Source: Lentisphaeria bacterium
GTDB taxonomy: Bacteria; Verrucomicrobiota; Lentisphaeria; JABSQK01; JAWLHB01
Reading direction: 5' to 3'
DNA: 64,000 nucleotides
NCBI GenBank assembly: GCA_041690595.1
Contig: JAWLHB010000005.1
Coordinates: forward strand, 186,001 to 250,000
A program made the position numbers and the translations under genes. Positions 5,516 to 15,796 of this stretch are shown here, piece after piece (within the stretch, counting starts at the first letter, position 1; each line of letters starts with the position of its first letter). The notes under the pieces were generated by a model that was given only the letters and a program-made list of their open reading frames with translations, was not told the DNA's origin and did no database searches.

Positions 5516-7747
5516 CTATCGCCGAAAAAGGAGCCAGGCGGTGGCGAGCACGGTCTCCGGCCCCCACCGCGGTTCCTTCGCCATCACCTCCGCCAGTGTG
5601 GCGCCGACGGCGTCGTGATGCGTTTCCAGGTAATGCTGAAGCGTCTGCCGTATGCCCTCCTGATCGCGCTCGCGGAAGGCCTCGATGACTGGCGCGTGTG
5701 AACGTTGCCACAGCGCCGAGCGGCGGTTGATCTCCTCATTGAGCATCTCCGAAATGCTGATCTTCGTCGTCGAGCGCAACAGCCAGCCGTTCGGAATCAG
5801 CAGCCAGCCGCAGAGCACGTTGAGCAGCTCGTAATACTCCTCGCGGCTCGTCAACCGCTCCAGGCTTGCAAAGACAACCGGAGCCGCGCTGTACGCTTCC
5901 AGCCGCAGCAAAGCCCGGCAGCACGATGCGATCACCTGCAGGTTCTCTTCGTCGCTGCACGCCAGCAGCTCCGCCAGCGGCCCGCTGGCCGCGGCATTCC
6001 CCACCTTTCCCAGCGCCCGCGCCGACATCGCCCGCACCCGTGCGGACGAACTGTGCGTGAACCGATCGATCAACGCCTCATAGGCCGGCGCAAACTTCAG
6101 CTCCCCCAGCGCCCAGGCAAGGTGGTCGCTCAGGTGCTCGCTGCGCGGATCCTCGAACAGGCGCAGCAACGCCTCCCCCGCCACCGGCGAACCTGTGCGC
6201 GCCAGGCTGCGGATCGCCTCCACCTTCACGTCGTACTCTGGATCACCAAGCAGTTCCAGGAGCGGATCGATCACCATCGGATTCTTCTGCCATCCCAGCC
6301 ACCGCGCCAGCTCTTCCCGCCGCCCCTCGTCCTCATGATAGAGATGGCGCTGTGCCGCGATCGTCCGCACCGGCCCGTACAGAATCGACGTGAAGAAATC
6401 GCCCACCCCGAAGTAAGGACGCGCATTCGGCAACCGCCGGGCCAGCAGGATCGTCACCAGCGCAATGATCGGCACCGCGATGCACAGGTACCCCTTCATC
6501 CAGTCGAAGTGAAAGACTCCCCCCGCAAACGGCATCGTTCCCCTCGGCATCGCCAGATCCTCCAACAACTTGCCCCCCAGCAACGCCACCAGCGCGATCA
6601 CCACAAACGAACAGAGGCTGACGATATTCATCGCCGGCAGCGAATCCCGGTGGCGCACGTGAAAATGCTGGATCGAGGTGTTGGCAATGCCCATCCCCGC
6701 CACCAGCGCCCCATTGAAGAGGCCGAATACCCCCAGCAGCACCAGCGTCAGCCAGTCGGTCTCCGTGAAGGCGCTCAACTCCGCCGCCATAGGCGTCAGC
6801 GGGCGCATCGGCAGCAGCAAGACCGGCTGCACGAAGACGCAGAGTGCCAGCAACCCGATCAGCATCGGCCGGAAGCCCACCGTATCCGCCACCCGCCCCC
6901 AGAGCAGATACGACAGCGCTCCGCCCACCGTCACGCACAGCACATAAAGGGAAACCATGTTCGACGGCACCAGCAGCATCCGCCGAAGATAGATGACGAA
7001 GATCGGCATGTTGATCAGCGCCAGCAGCAGAATAATCAGCAGCGGCAGCCGCAGCAACCGTGAACTCCGCAGAACGACCCAGAAGCTGGCCCCCTCCCCT
7101 TCCCCATCGCCGCTTTCCTGTGATCGCGTCGGAATCAGCCGCAACCAGAAAATCTGATTCAGCGCCCCCAGCGCCGCGATTACCAGCAGCAGCTTGTATT
7201 GCATTTCCGTGATCTCCTGGCCCACGATCACCGCCACCAGCAGGCTCACCAGTGCCGTCATCGAGCTGAACCAGAAGCGCATCGTCGCAAAGAAGCTGCC
7301 ACGATCCGCGGTCGTCGTCAGATCCCGCAACATCGGCTGCCACACCGTGATCGCCCCAAGCTGCTGCCCTCCCACAAAGGTCATCAGCAAGCCCAGGTAA
7401 AGTGGAAAGGTGAGCGCCGATGCAGGCAGAAAAAGGAGCACCAGAATCACCCCCAGGCGCACCATCAGGCTCGCCAGCAAGGTCCGCTTAAGCCCGAACC
7501 GACGCACCGGGCCCAGCAACGGTATGCGCAGAATCCCCACCATCGGCGCCACCGCCAGAATCGTCGCGATGCGCTTTGGCGAATACCCGAGCACGTCGTT
7601 CGCAAAGACCTGCATCATCGCGCCTGCACAGATAAAGGTGGCCGTGTTCGCAAAGCTGTTCCCCAAGATCACGTACCGCTGCGCCCGCTGCCGCTCCGCC
7701 GGCGTCAGCGACCACGTTTTTCTATCTTTCAAATCCAGGTTGAACAT
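5516..7747 (-). CDS. MFS transporter fused to C-terminal HEAT repeats
   Basis: About 12 hydrophobic segments with WGRVADTVGFRP (MFS motif A-like), then HEAT repeats (VKVEAIRSLARTG, VRAMSARALGKVG). Start uncertain (7747 or 7756). Confidence 0.8.
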   Translation of the reverse strand: MFNLDLKDRKTWSLTPAERQRAQRYVILGNSFANTATFICAGAMMQVFANDVLGYSPKRIATILAVAPMVGILRIPLLGPVRRFGLKRTLLASLMVRLGVILVLLFLPASALTFPLYLGLLMTFVGGQQLGAITVWQPMLRDLTTTADRGSFFATMRFWFSSMTALVSLLVAVIVGQEITEMQYKLLLVIAALGALNQIFWLRLIPTRSQESGDGEGEGASFWVVLRSSRLLRLPLLIILLLALINMPIFVIYLRRMLLVPSNMVSLYVLCVTVGGALSYLLWGRVADTVGFRPMLIGLLALCVFVQPVLLLPMRPLTPMAAELSAFTETDWLTLVLLGVFGLFNGALVAGMGIANTSIQHFHVRHRDSLPAMNIVSLCSFVVIALVALLGGKLLEDLAMPRGTMPFAGGVFHFDWMKGYLCIAVPIIALVTILLARRLPNARPYFGVGDFFTSILYGPVRTIAAQRHLYHEDEGRREELARWLGWQKNPMVIDPLLELLGDPEYDVKVEAIRSLARTGSPVAGEALLRLFEDPRSEHLSDHLAWALGELKFAPAYEALIDRFTHSSSARVRAMSARALGKVGNAAASGPLAELLACSDEENLQVIASCCRALLRLEAYSAAPVVFASLERLTSREEYYELLNVLCGWLLIPNGWLLRSTTKISISEMLNEEINRRSALWQRSHAPVIEAFRERDQEGIRQTLQHYLETHHDAVGATLAEVMAKEPRWGPETVLATAWLLFRR

Positions 7748-7899
7748 AGATCCCATCCTTCTCGCTGCAAAAACTGCCGCCTCCACAGCCAATGTCAATC
7801 CACAATTTTCCATTGGCAACGACTCGCCAGCCGGGCAGAATGACGCTACACTTGATGCTGACGGATGTAAACCCGACCTTCACACGAAAGGTAGCTGCC

Positions 7900-9499: not shown

Positions 9500-10804
9500 A
9501 TGCCCAAGCTCCTCGACACCTACCAGCCCCCCACCCTCCCCGCCGCCGAGATCCACCATCTGCGCTCCCTCGCCCGCCAGATGACCGAGATTGCCGCCTT
9601 GCCCGTCATGGCTGAACGGCGCCAGCTCTGGACCGACATGAACGACGCCCGCCCTCATACCCGTCCCCCCTTCGCCATCGAAAGCTGGACCTTCGACCGC
9701 GACTTCATGCCCGACTCCATCTACCAGTGCGCCAGCGATCAGGGCCGCCGGCTCGAGAAGTACTTCCTGCGCCACATCCGCCATCACCAGCTCCTCGATG
9801 ACGATCACGTCTGCCCCGATACCTACGACATGGGATGGCATGTCTGGCACGATGAGTACGGCATCGAGATCCCCACCCAGTACATCAAGGACTCCGAGGG
9901 CATCGTCACCGGCTATCACTTCGACTGCCCCATCAAGGATCTCGACCGCGATGGCTTCGCCATGGTCAAGCCCGCCGAGTTTGGCGTCGATCGCGAGGGT
10001 ACCATGGCCGAGAAAGCCTTTCTCGAATCTCTCTTCGGCGACATCCTTCCCGTCGTCATCCGCTCCGGCACCTATGCCCACACCTGCCTCACCCAGCGTC
10101 TCATGCGCCTGATGAGCCAGGAAAGCATGTTCATGGCCATCTACGACTGCCCCGACAAGCTCCGCGGCCTCCTCCAACTCCTCCACGACAACGCCAAGCG
10201 CATGGCCCAGTGGGCGGAGCGCGAAGGGCTCCTCGTCGTCAACAACGGCAATCAATGCACCTGCGGCACCTGTTTCAACTTCACCACCCTCCTCCCCAGA
10301 CAGCCCGTCGTCCCCGGCCAGGTCAAGCTCAAGGACATGTGGGCCGGCATGGACAGCCAGGAGACCGTCGGCGTCTCACCCCAAGCATTCCACGACATCT
10401 TCTTCCCCTTCTACAGCGACCTCGCCGACATGTTCGGCTTCGTCTATTGGGGCTGTTGCGAACCGGCCGATCCCCTCTGGGAGAAATCCCTCAGCAAACT
10501 GCCCAACCTGAAAGCCATCTCCATTTCCCGCTGGGCAAACCAGGCCCGCATGGCGGAAGCCCTCGCCGGCACCGGCATGGTCTTCTCCCGCAAGCCCAAC
10601 CCCAATCTCCTCGGCGTCGACAGAGTCCTCGACGAAGAAGCCTGGGCAAAAGAGATCCGCGACACCCTCGAGCAGACCGTAAAGTACGACCTCCCCACCG
10701 AGTTCGTCGTGCGCGACGTCTACTCCATGCACGGCAACCTCGACAAAGCCCGCCGTGCCGTCCAGATCGCCAGGAGCGAGATCGACCGCCACTACGCCAG
10801 CTAA
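9500..10804 (+). CDS. Uroporphyrinogen decarboxylase/methyltransferase-like (URO-D superfamily) protein
   Basis: SQETVGVSP..F..IF.PFY, YWGCCEP and ISISRW motifs. The true start is ATG 9500; the upstream part of the track ORF is a shadow of the sulfatase. Confidence 0.6.
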   Translation: MPKLLDTYQPPTLPAAEIHHLRSLARQMTEIAALPVMAERRQLWTDMNDARPHTRPPFAIESWTFDRDFMPDSIYQCASDQGRRLEKYFLRHIRHHQLLDDDHVCPDTYDMGWHVWHDEYGIEIPTQYIKDSEGIVTGYHFDCPIKDLDRDGFAMVKPAEFGVDREGTMAEKAFLESLFGDILPVVIRSGTYAHTCLTQRLMRLMSQESMFMAIYDCPDKLRGLLQLLHDNAKRMAQWAEREGLLVVNNGNQCTCGTCFNFTTLLPRQPVVPGQVKLKDMWAGMDSQETVGVSPQAFHDIFFPFYSDLADMFGFVYWGCCEPADPLWEKSLSKLPNLKAISISRWANQARMAEALAGTGMVFSRKPNPNLLGVDRVLDEEAWAKEIRDTLEQTVKYDLPTEFVVRDVYSMHGNLDKARRAVQIARSEIDRHYAS

Positions 10805-10866: not shown

Positions 10867-11331
10867 TCAACTGAACAGTCCACCCAACCTTCTCAGCACC
10901 CATGTCAGGATGGCATCGGATCCGGTGAAGGCCAGCCAATACGTAAGGAAGGCGGCAGACAACGCAAGACTGAAGACCAAGCCTTCGGTGCCAATGGTGA
11001 CGGTAACGGAGATGATTGCGGTGAAGACCACCACAGCCGCGACCCATGCCGATACTTTCAGCATGCGGCATAGCAAATGGAGGCCCCCCGTAACGAGGAA
11101 GAGAAACAGGCCGAAAGCCGCAACGCAGATGGCATAGAGGAGCACACCGAGGATCATGATGGGAAAAAGGAGAGGCCCACCCATGTCGCCGGTAACGAGG
11201 CAACTTATAAACAAGAAGATGATCGCAGCGAAGGCCAGAACCACCGGCACGGCGAGAAACAACACGAGATAGACTCCCGCCGCGACCGCGTGAGCAATCA
11301 GGAACGTTGCGGTGTCAGGCCATCTTGTCAT
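10867..11331 (-). CDS. Hypothetical integral membrane protein
   Basis: 154 aa, almost entirely hydrophobic with 4-5 TM segments. Confidence 0.55.
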   Translation of the reverse strand: MTRWPDTATFLIAHAVAAGVYLVLFLAVPVVLAFAAIIFLFISCLVTGDMGGPLLFPIMILGVLLYAICVAAFGLFLFLVTGGLHLLCRMLKVSAWVAAVVVFTAIISVTVTIGTEGLVFSLALSAAFLTYWLAFTGSDAILTWVLRRLGGLFS

Positions 11332-11415: not shown

Positions 11416-11531
11416 GACCGAACTTGAGGGTCGTGCGTATGCAGAATTCGCGATCCAGCGGGTCTTTGCATTTGCTCATGATGACCAGATTGTGAGCCCA
11501 GGAAAATTCCTCCAACCAGCAGTTGGAGTCT
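11416..11531 (-). pseudogene. Frameshifted fragment of a DUF1016/YhcG-family gene
   Basis: Reads RLQLLVGGI, then after a +1 shift SWAHNLVIMSKCKDPLDREFCIRTTLKFG, matching the conserved LQ.LV..ISW.HN..I...CKD...REFY block of DUF1016. The rest of the gene is absent. Confidence 0.7.
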
Positions 11532-11572: not shown

Positions 11573-14500
11573 CTAAGGTTCGAGGGTGAAGGGGATGTCG
11601 GGAGGGGTGGGCTGGCTGGCGAGGAGTTCTTTGCAGCGGCGGGCCTTGGCGGTCATGCGGCATTGCTCGTACCAGGTGATGGCTTCGGCGTACTCCCCGC
11701 GGGCTTCGGCGTCGGCGCCCATGCTCTTGCAGTAGTCGCGGCGATTGCCGGCGGCAAGATAATGCTGGGCGGCATCCGTGAAACGCTCTTCGGATTCAGC
11801 CAAGGCGGCGCGACAGCGGTGGACGCGCGCTTTGTCGCCGCTCGCCTCGAAGCATCTGGCGGCGTCGGCGAAGAGCTGAATCCTCTGGTAGAGCGCCCCG
11901 GCGCGCGTGATCTCGCCGGCACGTTCCAGCTCTTCGGCAAAGATAGGGCGATCTTTGTAATTGCGATTCATGTAGGTATCAATCCCCGACATCCCATGCT
12001 GCGCGATGCGTCGGCGGAATCTGATGCGGATCAGGAGGCGGTTGATCTGCTCTTCCTGTGCCAAGTATACTGCTCTGGAGGAGGATGAGAGTAGACGAAG
12101 ACAGATCTCCTCGGCCAACGCATCGCGGCCAATCTCGAGAAAACTGGTGGCGGATGCAACGGGATCGGAGTTTCGCGTTTCGAGGGCATGCAGCCAGAGA
12201 GCTGCGTCGGCATGGGAAGAGCGGCGGAGGCAATGCATCAGTTGACGGGTCTGCCCCAGGCGTTCATAGAGGCGGGCGGCGTCGAGCCACTTCTGCTGGG
12301 ATTCGAAACTCTTCGCTTCATGAGCGAGCGCGCGATCGGAGTCGCCAACCGAGCGCCAGTGTTCGGCGGCGCCGGCGTGGTCGCCGCTGCGTTCGGCAGC
12401 CAGGGCGGCGGCGCGTGCCGCCTTCTGGTGAGAGCCAGCCTGCCGCCAGACCTGAGCGGCTTCGCCGTGCTGTCCGCTCTCCTCCAGCAGGGAGGCAACC
12501 TTGGCCAGATCGCCCTCCTGCCTGGCCATCTGGATGCGCAGGACGAGGACCTGATCTCGCATGCCGGCACGCATGTACAGGTCGATCGCCCCCTTGAGAT
12601 CGTTCTGCTTGACGGCAATGCGGGCGGCATCGACGAAGTTGCGGTTGCGCTCGTGGAGCTGGCGCATGCAGCGGCGGTAGCCGTCGGTGTCGTTGGCCTT
12701 CTGCCAGGCTTCGGCAGCTTGGCGAATCATGCCGGCGGCCTCGTAATTGGTGGCGGCGGCCTGCCATTCGCGTACGCTGTTGTAGGCTTCGGCGGCATCT
12801 CTATAATTGCCGATGCGGGCAAGGCAGGGGGCGGCGCGGCCAAGCTCTTCCAGAGCGATGAAGAGATCGGCGGCGCGGCGATCGCGGCCGACGCTCTCCT
12901 CGAAGGCGGCCATGGCCAGTTGCTCCTGGCGACGGCTTCCGGCGCGGCGATAGCATTCGGCGGCCTGGCGAAAACGGCCGCGCTCCAGAAAGTAGTTACC
13001 TTCCGCCGCCCATTGATCCGGCGACGTGGCAAAGAGCATGAACTTGGCGAGCGCATCCGGGGCATCCTGCTCGATAAAGGCGCGAAACTGGGGGCCCTGC
13101 CAGAGTTCGACAGCGGCCGGATCGGCCTCGTAGACGCCCAAATAGCGGCGCGCGCGGGTGATGGCGACATAGGCATGACGAAGCACCCGCCGGGCACCCG
13201 GATCTTCCTTCAACTCGGCATCGTCCTGGAGGATCTTCGCCCACAACTTGATGTCGCCGCCGAAGAGGTTCCAGATGACGCAACCGTCGAATTCGAGTCC
13301 CTTGGCGCCGGCGATGTCGAAGACGCGCTCGCTTTCGAGGTGTCGGCTCAGCCGCTCGGCATCCTCAACGGTGGGGACGATGATGGCGCAGCGGGGGCCG
13401 AAGCCCTTAACCTGTTCGATGACCTGCGCTTCCGCGCCGGTCACCAGGATGGGGGTGGAGCCGCGAAGGGTGGTCTCCTGAAGGTAGTCGTCGTCACTGC
13501 GGCCGGTACGATCGCGCTGCACGCGGACAAAGGCGTTGGCGATGCCGACGATGCTCTGTACGCTGCGATAGTTGCGGGTGAGGCTGCTGATCTCGGGCGC
13601 GGCAGAGCCGGGGGTGAGGTCGCGCAGGAGGGAGCGCAGCTCCGCCCAGCGGAAGCCGCTGGGATTGACGATCTGCTGCGGGTCGGCGGCGAAGAAGAGC
13701 CCGGAGAGATCGTGAACAAGCTCCAGGAGGAAGCGCATCTCGAGTTCCGTGAGGTCCTGCCCCTCATCGCAGATGACCTGGTGGTAACGCAGCTCGGGAT
13801 GGTCGCGCAAGGTGCGGAGAGCGCGACGCGCAAGGTCGATGTCGTCCATGCGGCCGCCGTCGCGGCACCACTCCTGATACTTGAGGAAGACCTGGTAGAG
13901 CCGGGGGCGCTCATGCGAGAAGAGGGGAGCCCGCTTGCGGCCGAGCTGCTCGTACTCTTCGCGGCTCAGGTGTTCGCGGGTAAGGTCGAGGCAGGAACCC
14001 TTGATGATGCCGCGAATCTCCTCCCAGGCCAGGGCGGCGTCGTTGCGCCGGTAGATCATCCTGTACCACTGCTCGAAGTGGGGATAGCGCAGGAGCTGAC
14101 GTCGCTCGACATGGCGACCGGCCAATTCTTCGAAGAGCTGGGGAAAGGTCTTGAAGTCGGGCAGGCTTCCGGGAAGTGGCTTACGGCGCGCGTGAAAGAG
14201 ATCGCGAAAGAGCTGCCTGGCGGCGTTGAGCAGGGGCTCGCTGTAGGTGACCAGCAGGAGGCGGCTGCCCGGCTGCTCGCAGACGGCGCGGGCGAGACGA
14301 TAGACGCTGACGGTGGTCTTGCCGGAACCGGCGGTGCCGCGCAGCAGTAGCGGGCCTGGCCGGTAGAGAGTGAGCGCCTGTTCGCGGCTGAGCTTGAGTT
14401 CGAGATCGCTGACGCCCGGGTCGTCGAGCAAGGCCTGCCATTCCTCTTCATCGGTGATGATGTCGGGATCGACCTCGAACCAGCGGATGGACTCGGTCAG

Positions 14501-14983
14501 TTCATCAGTAGTAGTGTTGATATGACCGGGGTCGTTGATCCAGGCGCTGAGTTGGGCGGTGTCGCTGGTCTCGTAGTCGGCGGCGGCTTCGGGCGCGACA
14601 GGCGGCTCGTCAATCTCCATGTCGGCGATGACGTCGAAGTCGAGGAAGCCCGTTTCGGGCTGCAAGTTCATGCGGCGGGCGCGATCGATGTGATCGTGAT
14701 CGACGATATCCCAAGCGAGAAGATAATGCTCGAGGGCGTGCGGAGGATGCGGCGAATAGGCGCGGCTGACGGTGAAGAGGAGACGCAGCGATCGGTCGAC
14801 CCTTGCCTCGTACACGAACTTCGAGATCCCCTTGAGGAGCTTGACGCGCGTACCACCTCCCCAACTGCCCAGCTGAAGACGCTCGAGGGTCTTCTGCAAC
14901 AGCCCGCGAACGCTCTTCTGCTCGCCGCGCAGCACGGGAACGAGGGTATGGTGCACCAGGATGTTGAAGAAGGGAGAAGCCAT
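11573..14983 (-). CDS. UvrD-like SF1 helicase with N-terminal RelE-like domain and C-terminal TPR-like repeats (TRANK1-like architecture)
   Basis: GTAGSGKT, ICDEGQD, AADPQQ, LTRNYRS, AKGLEFD, YVAITRAR; many AA..Y..AG helical repeats in the C-terminal ~470 aa. Confidence 0.85.
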   Translation of the reverse strand: MASPFFNILVHHTLVPVLRGEQKSVRGLLQKTLERLQLGSWGGGTRVKLLKGISKFVYEARVDRSLRLLFTVSRAYSPHPPHALEHYLLAWDIVDHDHIDRARRMNLQPETGFLDFDVIADMEIDEPPVAPEAAADYETSDTAQLSAWINDPGHINTTTDELTESIRWFEVDPDIITDEEEWQALLDDPGVSDLELKLSREQALTLYRPGPLLLRGTAGSGKTTVSVYRLARAVCEQPGSRLLLVTYSEPLLNAARQLFRDLFHARRKPLPGSLPDFKTFPQLFEELAGRHVERRQLLRYPHFEQWYRMIYRRNDAALAWEEIRGIIKGSCLDLTREHLSREEYEQLGRKRAPLFSHERPRLYQVFLKYQEWCRDGGRMDDIDLARRALRTLRDHPELRYHQVICDEGQDLTELEMRFLLELVHDLSGLFFAADPQQIVNPSGFRWAELRSLLRDLTPGSAAPEISSLTRNYRSVQSIVGIANAFVRVQRDRTGRSDDDYLQETTLRGSTPILVTGAEAQVIEQVKGFGPRCAIIVPTVEDAERLSRHLESERVFDIAGAKGLEFDGCVIWNLFGGDIKLWAKILQDDAELKEDPGARRVLRHAYVAITRARRYLGVYEADPAAVELWQGPQFRAFIEQDAPDALAKFMLFATSPDQWAAEGNYFLERGRFRQAAECYRRAGSRRQEQLAMAAFEESVGRDRRAADLFIALEELGRAAPCLARIGNYRDAAEAYNSVREWQAAATNYEAAGMIRQAAEAWQKANDTDGYRRCMRQLHERNRNFVDAARIAVKQNDLKGAIDLYMRAGMRDQVLVLRIQMARQEGDLAKVASLLEESGQHGEAAQVWRQAGSHQKAARAAALAAERSGDHAGAAEHWRSVGDSDRALAHEAKSFESQQKWLDAARLYERLGQTRQLMHCLRRSSHADAALWLHALETRNSDPVASATSFLEIGRDALAEEICLRLLSSSSRAVYLAQEEQINRLLIRIRFRRRIAQHGMSGIDTYMNRNYKDRPIFAEELERAGEITRAGALYQRIQLFADAARCFEASGDKARVHRCRAALAESEERFTDAAQHYLAAGNRRDYCKSMGADAEARGEYAEAITWYEQCRMTAKARRCKELLASQPTPPDIPFTLEP

Positions 14984-14989
14984 GAAACC

Positions 14990-15796
14990 TCAGGTGGCGG
15001 CATAGCTGTACGTGGTGTCGATCTCGATGGTTCTGGAAATCCGGTGCTGTTCGGCGACGATCATCTCGACATCTCCACGCTCCATCTCGGCCAGGCGGCC
15101 GGCCATGAGATCATGCACGAGCCGCGGCCGATTGCATTCTTCGCTGAGGTGCGCGAGAATCAGGTGCCGGGTGCGGGAGCCGACGATATTGGGTACCAGT
15201 TGCGCCGCCAACTGGTTACTCAAATGGCCTCGCCGGCTGAGGATGCGGTTCTGCAGCCGAATCGGGCGACGGGACTGGCGCAGCAGCTCGGGATCGTGGT
15301 TACTCTCCAGAATGATCGCTTCGCAATCCTTCAGCTTGAAGGGAACGGCCGCTCCCGGATGGCCAAAATCCGTCGCGATCCCGATGCGGCAGCCTCCCGC
15401 ATGAACGATGAATCCAACCGGATCGACCGCGTCGTGGCAGATCGAGAAGGCATCGACGCGAAAAGGGCCGACATCGAATGGAGCACCATTGGCAAAGATG
15501 CTCAGCCTCTCGGGAGCATTTTCCTTATACCTCAGCCGCTCGGCTGTCAGGGCATTCGTGTAGACCGGCGCATCGGTATGGCGGTCGGCAAAGACGCGGA
15601 GGCCTTTGATATGATCGGCATGCTCGTGGGTAACGAGCAGACCGCGGATACTATCGGGGGGGATGGCAGCGTCCATCATGCGGCGCTTGATTTCAACTCC
15701 GGAAAAACCCGCGTCGATCATCAACGAATGATCGCCGAACCGGAGCACCATGCAGTTGCCGTCACTGCCGCTGCCGAGAATCGTCACATTGAGCAT
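14990..15796 (-). CDS. MBL-fold metallo-hydrolase (YycJ/WalJ-like)
   Basis: LGSGSDGN, THEHADH, HDAVDP, LESNHD, GHLSN, LAHLSEECN. Confidence 0.9.
   Translation of the reverse strand: MLNVTILGSGSDGNCMVLRFGDHSLMIDAGFSGVEIKRRMMDAAIPPDSIRGLLVTHEHADHIKGLRVFADRHTDAPVYTNALTAERLRYKENAPERLSIFANGAPFDVGPFRVDAFSICHDAVDPVGFIVHAGGCRIGIATDFGHPGAAVPFKLKDCEAIILESNHDPELLRQSRRPIRLQNRILSRRGHLSNQLAAQLVPNIVGSRTRHLILAHLSEECNRPRLVHDLMAGRLAEMERGDVEMIVAEQHRISRTIEIDTTYSYAAT

Follow-up and report, generated by a model that had tools for sequence, protein, structure and literature searches.

The window (the whole 64,000-nucleotide stretch of DNA that was analysed) carries a gene whose single polypeptide starts with a RelE-fold domain and continues through an acidic linker and an SF1 motor into a helical solenoid (Table 1). 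We read the gene product as a self-inhibited, single-gene anti-virus RNase, with a probability of roughly 0.5. The open reading frame was intact with zero internal stops, its GC3 (0.79) was host-like, and the AF2 model of the 1136-residue protein had a mean pLDDT of 92.5. In a near strain, represented by low-depth contigs, 21 of the 24 base differences in the gene were synonymous.

Table 1. Features of the RelE-UvrD gene and its neighbours (positions are those of the window).
Feature	Residues	Positions	Strand	Remarks
Whole gene, 1136 aa		11573..14983	(-)	RelE-fold domain, acidic linker, SF1 motor, alpha-solenoid
RelE/ParE (BECR)-fold domain	5-104	14672..14971	(-)	Net charge +7
Acidic linker	108-197	14393..14662	(-)	Net charge -24; putative built-in antitoxin
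UvrD-like SF1 helicase/ATPase	198-622	13118..14392	(-)	Most of subdomain 2B absent
Family-specific insert in motor		13928..14038	(-)	W320, E322, R324, K328, G329, Y344
Alpha-solenoid	655-1122	11618..13021	(-)	31 predicted helices; putative sensor
MBL-fold hydrolase gene		14990..15796	(-)	Core neighbour, outside unit
DUF1016_N (YhcG-like) relic, weak		about 11420-11512	(-)	Downstream; E 8e-5

The N-terminal domain had been proposed to adopt a RelE/ParE fold, and two structural comparisons agreed on this. All six Foldseek matches at E<=1e-3 were YoeB/YafQ/RelE/ParE toxins, and all 13 VIA matches at Z>=8 were RelE/ParE-superfamily toxins, the best with a Z of 10.2 and an rmsd of 2.2 A over 94 residues. 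The domain also matched a RelE-named cluster in Atlas at 0.92, and its BECR fold places it in the BECR superfamily. Sequence searches with the domain alone returned zero matches in Pfam, PADLOC, NCBIfam and PDB sequences. Its conserved residues were K48, E59, R61, R67, H96 and D97. Among 115 aligned prokaryotic homologues, picked for carrying the domain, H96 was retained in 115, R61 and R67 in 114 each, K48 in 112 and E59 in 110. Basic and His residues were thus conserved on the sheet face of the domain, a RelE-type feature, and we take K48, E59, R61, R67 and H96 to be equivalent to the catalytic residues of RelE/YoeB.

In all 92 homologues compared, the domain was basic (+3 to +14) and the linker following it acidic (-7 to -25); the reference charge for 90-residue windows of the motor was 0 +/- 3.6. 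This pattern suggests that the linker, which was ordered in the AF2 model, may serve as a built-in antitoxin for the basic domain. The charge contrast was weak in 77 eukaryotic sequences (+4 and -2), where linker acidity was slight, whereas the bacterial linker was strongly acidic. No adjacent antitoxin gene was found, with 6 bp to a core MBL gene on one side and no small partner common across the loci examined, as the original prediction had it, and a type II toxin-antitoxin module was rejected on this ground. The BECR fold is shared with the type II RelE/YoeB/YafQ/HigB toxins and the RelE fusion Cami1, but these have an antitoxin gene, an HTH antitoxin or a CARF, whereas here the domain precedes a motor and a solenoid in the same chain.

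The SF1 motifs, described as intact from the outset, were all located (Q, I, Ia, II, III, IV, V and VI at residues 198, 216, 244, 403, 431, 468, 557 and 604), and K222, D406, E407, Q409, D434, Q437, R473, K561, T609 and R610 were invariant in 94 of 94 aligned homologues. Pfam matches were to UvrD-helicase (E 2e-12) and UvrD_C (E 2e-7), and with motifs Q and I-VI intact the motor is a UvrD-like SF1A helicase. The span from motif IV to motif VI was 137 residues compared with 323 in PcrA, and therefore most of subdomain 2B is absent. A repair UvrD/PcrA/Rep helicase was ruled out, since those enzymes have the 2B subdomain that this motor mostly lacks, and the gene scored 42-46 bits against equivalog cut-offs of over 900.

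About 470 residues of TPR-like repeats had been predicted after the motor. A helical arm of 470 residues was found in the AF2 model, but the canonical TPR description was dropped: many of the repeats had a spacing of about 13 residues (helix starts at 701, 714, 727, 740, 753 and 766), the best profile match of the arm was IFT172, and all Pfam TPR matches in the 1136-residue protein were under the cut-off. The modelled arm is an alpha-SNAP/IFT/clathrin-like solenoid rather than a series of canonical 34-residue TPRs. Its distal part was the fastest-diverging part of the protein, with 23% identity over the 26-29 nearest homologues compared with 59% for the motor. We infer that the solenoid is the sensor.

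For an anti-virus RNase of this layout, the acidic linker would mask the basic RNA-binding face of the N-terminal domain, as a RelB-type antitoxin does. The solenoid might bind a foreign protein, or the motor might load aberrant single-stranded nucleic acid, and the ATP turnover so triggered would free the RelE-fold domain. Once freed, the domain would cleave either mRNA or tRNA, most probably on the ribosome, and thereby arrest translation in the infected cell. In its favour we counted the RelE fold, the conserved K/E/R/R/H, the charge pattern, patchy solitary occurrence and plasmid copies, together with some defence neighbours, the ARMADA type II pairing and the IFN-alpha induction of human TRANK1. 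Counted against it were the 17 of 28 loci with no recognisable defence neighbour and the 6 ambiguous ones, a window that is not a defence island, fixed housekeeping neighbourhoods, the lack of a PADLOC match beyond generic UvrD, host-like GC3 and the weak eukaryotic charge contrast.

The gene was patchy in occurrence, being present in 4 of 15 genomes of the order and in 1/60, 6/120 and 1/144 genomes of other samples, which upheld the view that it is not a core gene. One of the six copies in the sample of 120 was broken by three stops, two copies lay on cyanobacterial plasmids, and within the order one and the same site holds the gene in some genomes and is empty in others. A manual tally of 28 loci, made without a random control, gave 5 with clear defence neighbours, 6 ambiguous and 17 with none recognisable. 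Some members adjoined an ARMADA-like locus, pPIWI-RE, PDC-M55, DUF262 or VapC, and more distant members adjoined pAgo-SIR2 and TOTE genes. At a threshold of 1e-10, 3 of the 43 proteins of the window matched PADLOC models, all of them generic ABC or cold-shock matches, so the window is not a defence island; for the gene itself there was no PADLOC model beyond generic UvrD. The gene had zero matches in the phage collection and five weak relatives on viral contigs.

An enzyme of stress or RNA quality control is a less likely alternative, in which the motor would move along RNA or ribosomes that are damaged or stalled, the solenoid would dock on host machinery and the RelE domain would cut aberrant transcripts, with no virus trigger. 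Surroundings were housekeeping at most loci and synteny was lineage-stable: six Thermoanaerobaculia-like loci had a fixed housekeeping neighbourhood and three cyanobacterial loci also kept one, which looks like long vertical residence. Purifying selection in the near strain also fits this alternative, as does the fusion of a Upf1-like helicase (AAA_11/AAA_12) to several of the plant, chytrid and algal relatives. However, for housekeeping surveillance it would be unusual that the gene occurs in 1-27% of the genomes sampled, that some sites are empty, that one copy has decayed and that others sit on plasmids.

Among the neighbours in the window, the MBL gene does end 6 bp upstream of the open reading frame as first described, but it cannot be taken as part of the system or as a partner, because it is core: all 15 genomes sampled from the order have it, compared with 4 of 15 for the RelE-UvrD gene. 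Downstream, a match to the proposed DUF1016 relic was found but was weak (23 bits, under the Pfam cut-off of 32.8). No neighbour families except generic ones were common across phyla, and no partner gene was shared across loci, consistent with the predicted single-gene unit. The window contained no tRNA and no convincing flanking repeats, and showed no promoter excess.

Less probable still is a RelE-fold domain without catalytic activity, or of ParE type, that would bind RNA, DNA or gyrase and guide a DNA-processing motor. The fold alone fails to separate RelE from ParE (ParE chains matched at Z 7.9-8.4 in VIA) and the motor is of UvrD type, but the His was invariant and K/E/R/R near-invariant from bacteria to fungi, and the best structural matches were RNases, though with ParE within about 2 Z. 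In the available part of PMC11980606, the RNase catalytic residues are described as absent from ParE gyrase poisons.

RelE-UvrD fusions are already published. In ArmD of ARMADA type II, a RelE-like predicted RNase lies N-terminal to a GajB/UvrD-like helicase, as here; the pairing is essential, and Walker A is needed for defence (PMC12458937, available sections). There, ArmD closes an operon of four genes, whereas the gene here is solitary. Its same RelE-UvrD order and its need for three partners (PMC12458937, same sections), with some members of our family adjoining such systems, would suit an ArmD-like accessory subunit, inactive alone, acting in trans with R-M, DISARM/ARMADA-like or Argonaute systems, but this is the least probable reading, since no partner was common across loci and the ArmD-like protein of L013 lay outside the family (75 vs 730 bits on the family profile). 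That protein is 691 aa long, has no solenoid and was placed outside the family in the tree. ArmD membership was ruled out, as an operon with BrxHII-like, PglX-like and YprA-like genes was absent at this locus and the ArmD-like protein is a separate lineage. Gabija was likewise ruled out: no GajA nuclease is adjacent at this locus, and the GajB match (best E 9e-13) was weak, generic UvrD similarity to a protein that lacks the extra domains found here at both ends. Tiamat type I-K neighbourhoods also contain a RelE-fused helicase, which there plays an accessory part beside a GHL ATPase and a methyltransferase (bioRxiv 10.64898/2026.09.30.754977, in the portion available). The words 'helicase' and 'UvrD' are absent from the available main text and three supplements of Gerdes 2025. 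We found no paper on a solitary RelE-UvrD-solenoid family. The known RelE-UvrD fusions are all subunits of multi-gene systems; one that stands alone, with a solenoid arm and what looks like an antitoxin of its own, would give anti-phage proteins a new layout. Anantharaman and Aravind 2003 reportedly mentions RelE-SF1 helicase fusions.

Kinship with eukaryotic TRANK1 had also been put forward originally; kinship with a eukaryotic TRANK1-like family was found, and it extended beyond generic UvrD motifs to reciprocal profiles, a shared insert and the N-terminal domain. A eukaryote-only helicase profile scored 150 bits for the gene compared with 52 for the next UvrD in the genome, and the bacterial and eukaryotic families were reciprocal best helicase profiles. 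The RelE-like domain occurred at the same spacing, about 210 residues ahead of Walker A, in 94 of 125 eukaryotic relatives (mostly fungal and plant). K/E/K/R/H are kept in the eukaryotic domain, with the candidate catalytic residues retained in many fungal members, and the insert (WEEIR..IKG) was also present in one aligned eukaryotic relative. With similarity above that to other UvrDs, the insert and the RelE-like domain, the gene groups with the TRANK1/LBA1-like proteins of fungi, plants and algae. Judged by sequence, the RelE-plus-motor core is common to the bacterial gene and a large fungal and plant family. The eukaryotic relatives searched are 1800-4100 aa, whereas the bacterial protein is 1136 aa, and they often also bear ankyrin repeats or a further helicase of the Upf1-like kind, whereas the bacterial protein had no ankyrin Pfam match at E<=0.1.

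The fungal and plant family is likely the TRANK1 family, a name based on one fungal member labelled TRANK1 by its depositor (CUA74878.1, Rhizoctonia solani); it may include animal TRANK1. Searches of long proteins gave no animal sequences among the matches listed, and the literature searched yielded no paper that connects TRANK1 with RelE, UvrD or bacteria. Heimdallarchaeota copies exist, with 1 in 150 further genomes of the phylum. AU tests did not reject a grouping of eukaryotes with Heimdallarchaeota (p = 0.55) or a placement of eukaryotes outside every prokaryotic member (p = 0.72), and an Asgard origin of the eukaryotic family is neither supported nor rejected. Tree support was SH-aLRT from quick trees, and 14 of 110 rows were left out of the family tree (near-duplicates, one partial, one weak).

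We tentatively suggest that the family may be the prokaryotic form of TRANK1: a self-inhibited antiviral RNase-motor, encoded by a single gene, which passed into eukaryotes early on with its RelE-type active site preserved. If so, a poorly understood human gene that interferon induces could be assigned a biochemical activity, and bacteria would offer a model for it. Should animal TRANK1 belong, as the label suggests, an ATP-gated RNase would be the concrete prediction, and the family would be a candidate for immunity common to domains of life. Human TRANK1 is among the 400 most IFN-alpha-induced genes in the available part of PMC6880163.

The reading frame of the subject gene is uninterrupted, encodes 1136 aa and occurs once in its own genome. 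Pfam placed UvrD-helicase at aa 201-453 and UvrD_C at aa 557-616, and every TPR, SNAP and clathrin match in the protein fell under the cut-off. The SF1 motifs were intact (I to VI as predicted, and also Q), with key residues kept in 94/94 aligned homologues. Motifs IV and VI are 137 residues apart, compared with 323 in PcrA, and the motor therefore lacks most of subdomain 2B. The full-length AF2 model (pLDDT 92.5, pTM 0.75) begins with an N-domain of mixed alpha/beta structure, followed by an ordered linker, then the motor and finally 31 helices. The helical repeats of the proposed TPR-like array were confirmed but the TPR label was not, because many of these helices repeat at 13-residue spacing and the top profile match of the region was IFT172, which fit an alpha-solenoid better. 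Comparison with a near strain, through low-depth contigs, listed 24 differences within the gene, and 21 of these were synonymous (two runs, one study), a bias consistent with a maintained protein. The architecture of RelE-fold domain, motor and solenoid is well supported as real.

The N-domain was recognised by none of the sequence libraries searched (Pfam, PADLOC, NCBIfam and PDB sequences). Its predicted RelE/ParE-like fold was nevertheless supported by structure (model pLDDT 87.5): all six Foldseek matches at E<=1e-3 were YoeB, YafQ, RelE or ParE toxins, and VIA-align against 48,161 chains gave 13 matches at Z>=8, all RelE/ParE-superfamily toxins. The top match reached Z 10.2 (rmsd 2.2 A across 94 residues) and the earliest plainly unrelated one Z 4.9. 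An Atlas feature search ranked a RelE-named cluster third (0.92).

One feature overlooked by the original prediction is a charge pattern. All 92 of 92 homologues that have both parts combine a basic RelE domain (+3 to +14) with an acidic stretch of ~85 residues behind it (-7 to -25; -24 in the window protein), while 90-residue motor windows have a mean charge of 0 +/- 3.6. The contrast is weak in eukaryotic relatives (domain +4, linker -2; 77 sequences). Type II toxin-antitoxin pairs usually combine a basic toxin with an acidic antitoxin, and no antitoxin gene for the RelE-fold domain is present; by this analogy, we infer that the acidic linker may be a built-in inhibitor. Our best reading, at a probability of about 0.5, is a self-inhibited single-gene antiviral RNase. 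Infection would be sensed by the solenoid, or else by the motor, ATP turnover would push the linker off the RelE domain, and the freed domain would cleave RNA and halt translation. The distal part of the solenoid diverges fastest (23% identity vs 59% in the motor). Function is the weakest link of the whole case: the parts are observed, and we infer trigger, release and target.

Defence association of the family (the prokaryotic homologues) was mixed. A raw tally without random control covered 28 loci that combine a strong family score with a full N-domain, the split copy of genome G008 counted; 5 had clear defence neighbours, 6 had ambiguous ones and 17 had none. The clear neighbours were YprA-like and ArmD-like genes (L013), pPIWI-RE (L016), PDC-M55/GmrSD (L023), DUF262 (L087) and, as a weaker case, VapC on a plasmid (L086). 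The ambiguous six had Uma2 or PD-(D/E)XK nucleases, an SNF2 or, in the window, the DUF1016_N relic. The first set of neighbour ORFs numbered 173, of which 128 + 37 were scanned, and the second numbered 96, of which 63 were; several contigs stop close to the family gene. More distant members lie beside pAgo-SIR2 (L026) or TOTE genes (L037, L039); such neighbours were absent at L088, L099 and L041. The window itself is not a defence island. An RNA or ribosome quality control enzyme is a possible but doubtful alternative to the antiviral RNase.

In 115 prokaryotic homologues chosen for having the N-domain, H96 was present in 115, R61 and R67 in 114 each, K48 and D97 in 112 each and E59 in 110; these probably correspond to catalytic residues in RelE, YoeB and YafQ. 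ParE gyrase poisons lack the RNase catalytic residues according to the available text of PMC11980606, which favours an RNase, but ParE chains came within about 2 Z of the top structural matches. That the domain is non-catalytic or ParE-like is an improbable alternative.

RelE-helicase pairing has already been published and tied to defence. In the available text, ARMADA type II ArmD joins a RelE-like domain to a GajB-like UvrD helicase and belongs to an anti-phage system of four genes that depends on it (PMC12458937), and Tiamat type I-K is accompanied by a RelE-fused helicase (bioRxiv 10.64898/2026.09.30.754977). The searched text and three supplements of a multidomain RelE toxin survey (PMC11980606) contained no helicases, and the excerpt seen of a HEPN paper (PMC3710099) had no bearing on the subject protein. 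The window protein resembles ArmD in carrying a RelE-like domain on a UvrD helicase but is solitary, with a solenoid and a family insert, and the family profile gave the L013 ArmD-like protein 75 bits against 730; identity with ArmD is ruled out. When neighbours within 5 kb were clustered over 49 loci, synteny was chiefly at lineage level and no partner recurred across phyla; an accessory of another defence complex is the least probable reading.

The upstream MBL gene, proposed as a co-transcribed partner, proved to be a bystander. It is present in 15/15 genomes of the order, and the subject gene in 4/15, the window's genome counted. In three genomes the MBL gene directly adjoins proS; in G008 the family gene separates them. 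In one genus, the slot holding the family gene in G005 is filled by another gene in G001, G013 and partly G011. The family gene was therefore gained or lost alone. The predicted DUF1016 relic is real, although a weak match; the hydrophobic protein immediately past it possibly belongs to the same decayed insertion. The sole MBL gene beside a family gene outside the order (L024) is probably there by chance.

Coordinates of the subject gene, its neighbours and related loci
Location	Strand	Feature	Observation
window 11573-14983	-	subject gene	N-domain aa 5-104; linker 108-197; motor 198-622; solenoid 655-1122 (31 helices)
window 14990..15796	-	MBL gene	upstream
window ~11420-11512		DUF1016_N relic	downstream
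window 10867-11331	-	154-aa hydrophobic protein	GC3 0.70 (lower); no family match
window 9500-10804	+	434-aa protein	no Pfam match; at least 7 paralogues in genome, 25-34% identity
window 5516-7819	-	MFS transporter	fused C-terminal HEAT repeats
L013:5996-11346		ARMADA type II-like pair (Scytonema)	YprA/DruE-like helicase + RelE-UvrD; opposite strand, 1.9 kb from family member
L024:2328-3101		MBL gene (Marinimicrobia)	34% identical to window's; 1.7 kb upstream of family gene
L124:4170-7789		G008 copy	frameshift directly after RelE domain; assembly error or natural break
L018:5230-9945		Heimdallarchaeota member	
L027:7830-12824		Heimdallarchaeota member	
L127:3572-6484		Shigella motor relative (NC_007607.1)	25% identity across 480 aa

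The strongest results are the N-domain fold and a RelE-plus-motor core shared with eukaryotes. Long proteins from chytrids, chrysophytes and plants scored 274-280 bits with the family profile, against ~80 for PcrA and UvrD. A chytrid-core search listed 120 proteins, the named ones fungal or plant; one, from Rhizoctonia solani, carries its depositor's name 'TPR and ankyrin repeat-containing protein 1'. The prokaryotic N-domain-only profile matched 94/125 eukaryotic proteins at E<0.01, typically ~210 residues ahead of Walker A as in the window protein. These 94 keep K48 in 82, E59 in 89, R67 in 92 and H96 in 81, with Lys at the R61 position in 90. Fifteen Upf1-fused or unassigned members retain a weak N-domain remnant (14/15 at E<0.02). 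Reciprocally, a eukaryote-only helicase profile gave the subject gene 149.7 bits and the genome's next UvrD 51.5, and a eukaryote-only N-domain profile ranked the subject N-domain first of 45,713 frames (E 0.003; next 5.4). The kinship with the eukaryotic family thus extends beyond generic UvrD similarity. The eukaryotic proteins form a single clade (SH-aLRT 100). In trees with PcrA-like and GajB-like outgroups, this clade and the prokaryotic family group together (SH-aLRT 91-95); topology tests did not fix the exact position of the clade relative to prokaryotic members, and the window protein is not especially close to it. The eukaryotic family is very probably that of human TRANK1, on the basis of one depositor's label and of background knowledge; the profile searches retrieved no animal sequences. 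In the available text, human TRANK1 is among the 400 genes most induced by IFN-alpha (PMC6880163), whereas TRANK1 is listed as interferon-independent in bovine endometrium (PMC8970397). Openly readable papers, searched without preprint supplements, yielded none connecting TRANK1 with RelE, UvrD or bacteria. A related clade of ~1400-1700-aa proteins (L028, L029, L032, L034, L036), from cyanobacteria and one gammaproteobacterium, has a different, longer N-terminus that the family N-domain profile did not match; it groups with the eukaryotic clade (SH-aLRT 90) in one quick tree.

Distribution of the family is patchy. A word search gave 240 matches among 7,992 candidates, and an exhaustive search 328 clusters at E<=1e-30. 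Named carriers, from 6/64 parts of the collection, include Lentisphaerales, Thermoanaerobaculia, cyanobacteria, Spirochaetia, Marinimicrobia, Bacillota and Heimdallarchaeota. In four other groups, 1/60, 6/120, 1/144 and 1/150 further genomes carry the gene (centres excluded), lower bounds with few candidates scored per genome. Two copies lie on cyanobacterial plasmids, and one cyanobacterial copy is interrupted by three stops. Spirochaetia genome G044 has two full copies ~20 kb apart (L022, L096). The Heimdallarchaeota members (L018, L027; proteins P0191, P0204, P0211) form one clade, in which P0191 and P0204 bear an extra N-terminal OB fold ahead of the RelE domain. A distant motor relative occurs on Shigella virulence plasmids (97 Shigella records matched), annotated as a UvrD-helicase domain or ankyrin repeat protein and flanked on one side by the polysaccharide deacetylase gene of a virK cluster and on the other by an IS4 element close to ospG.
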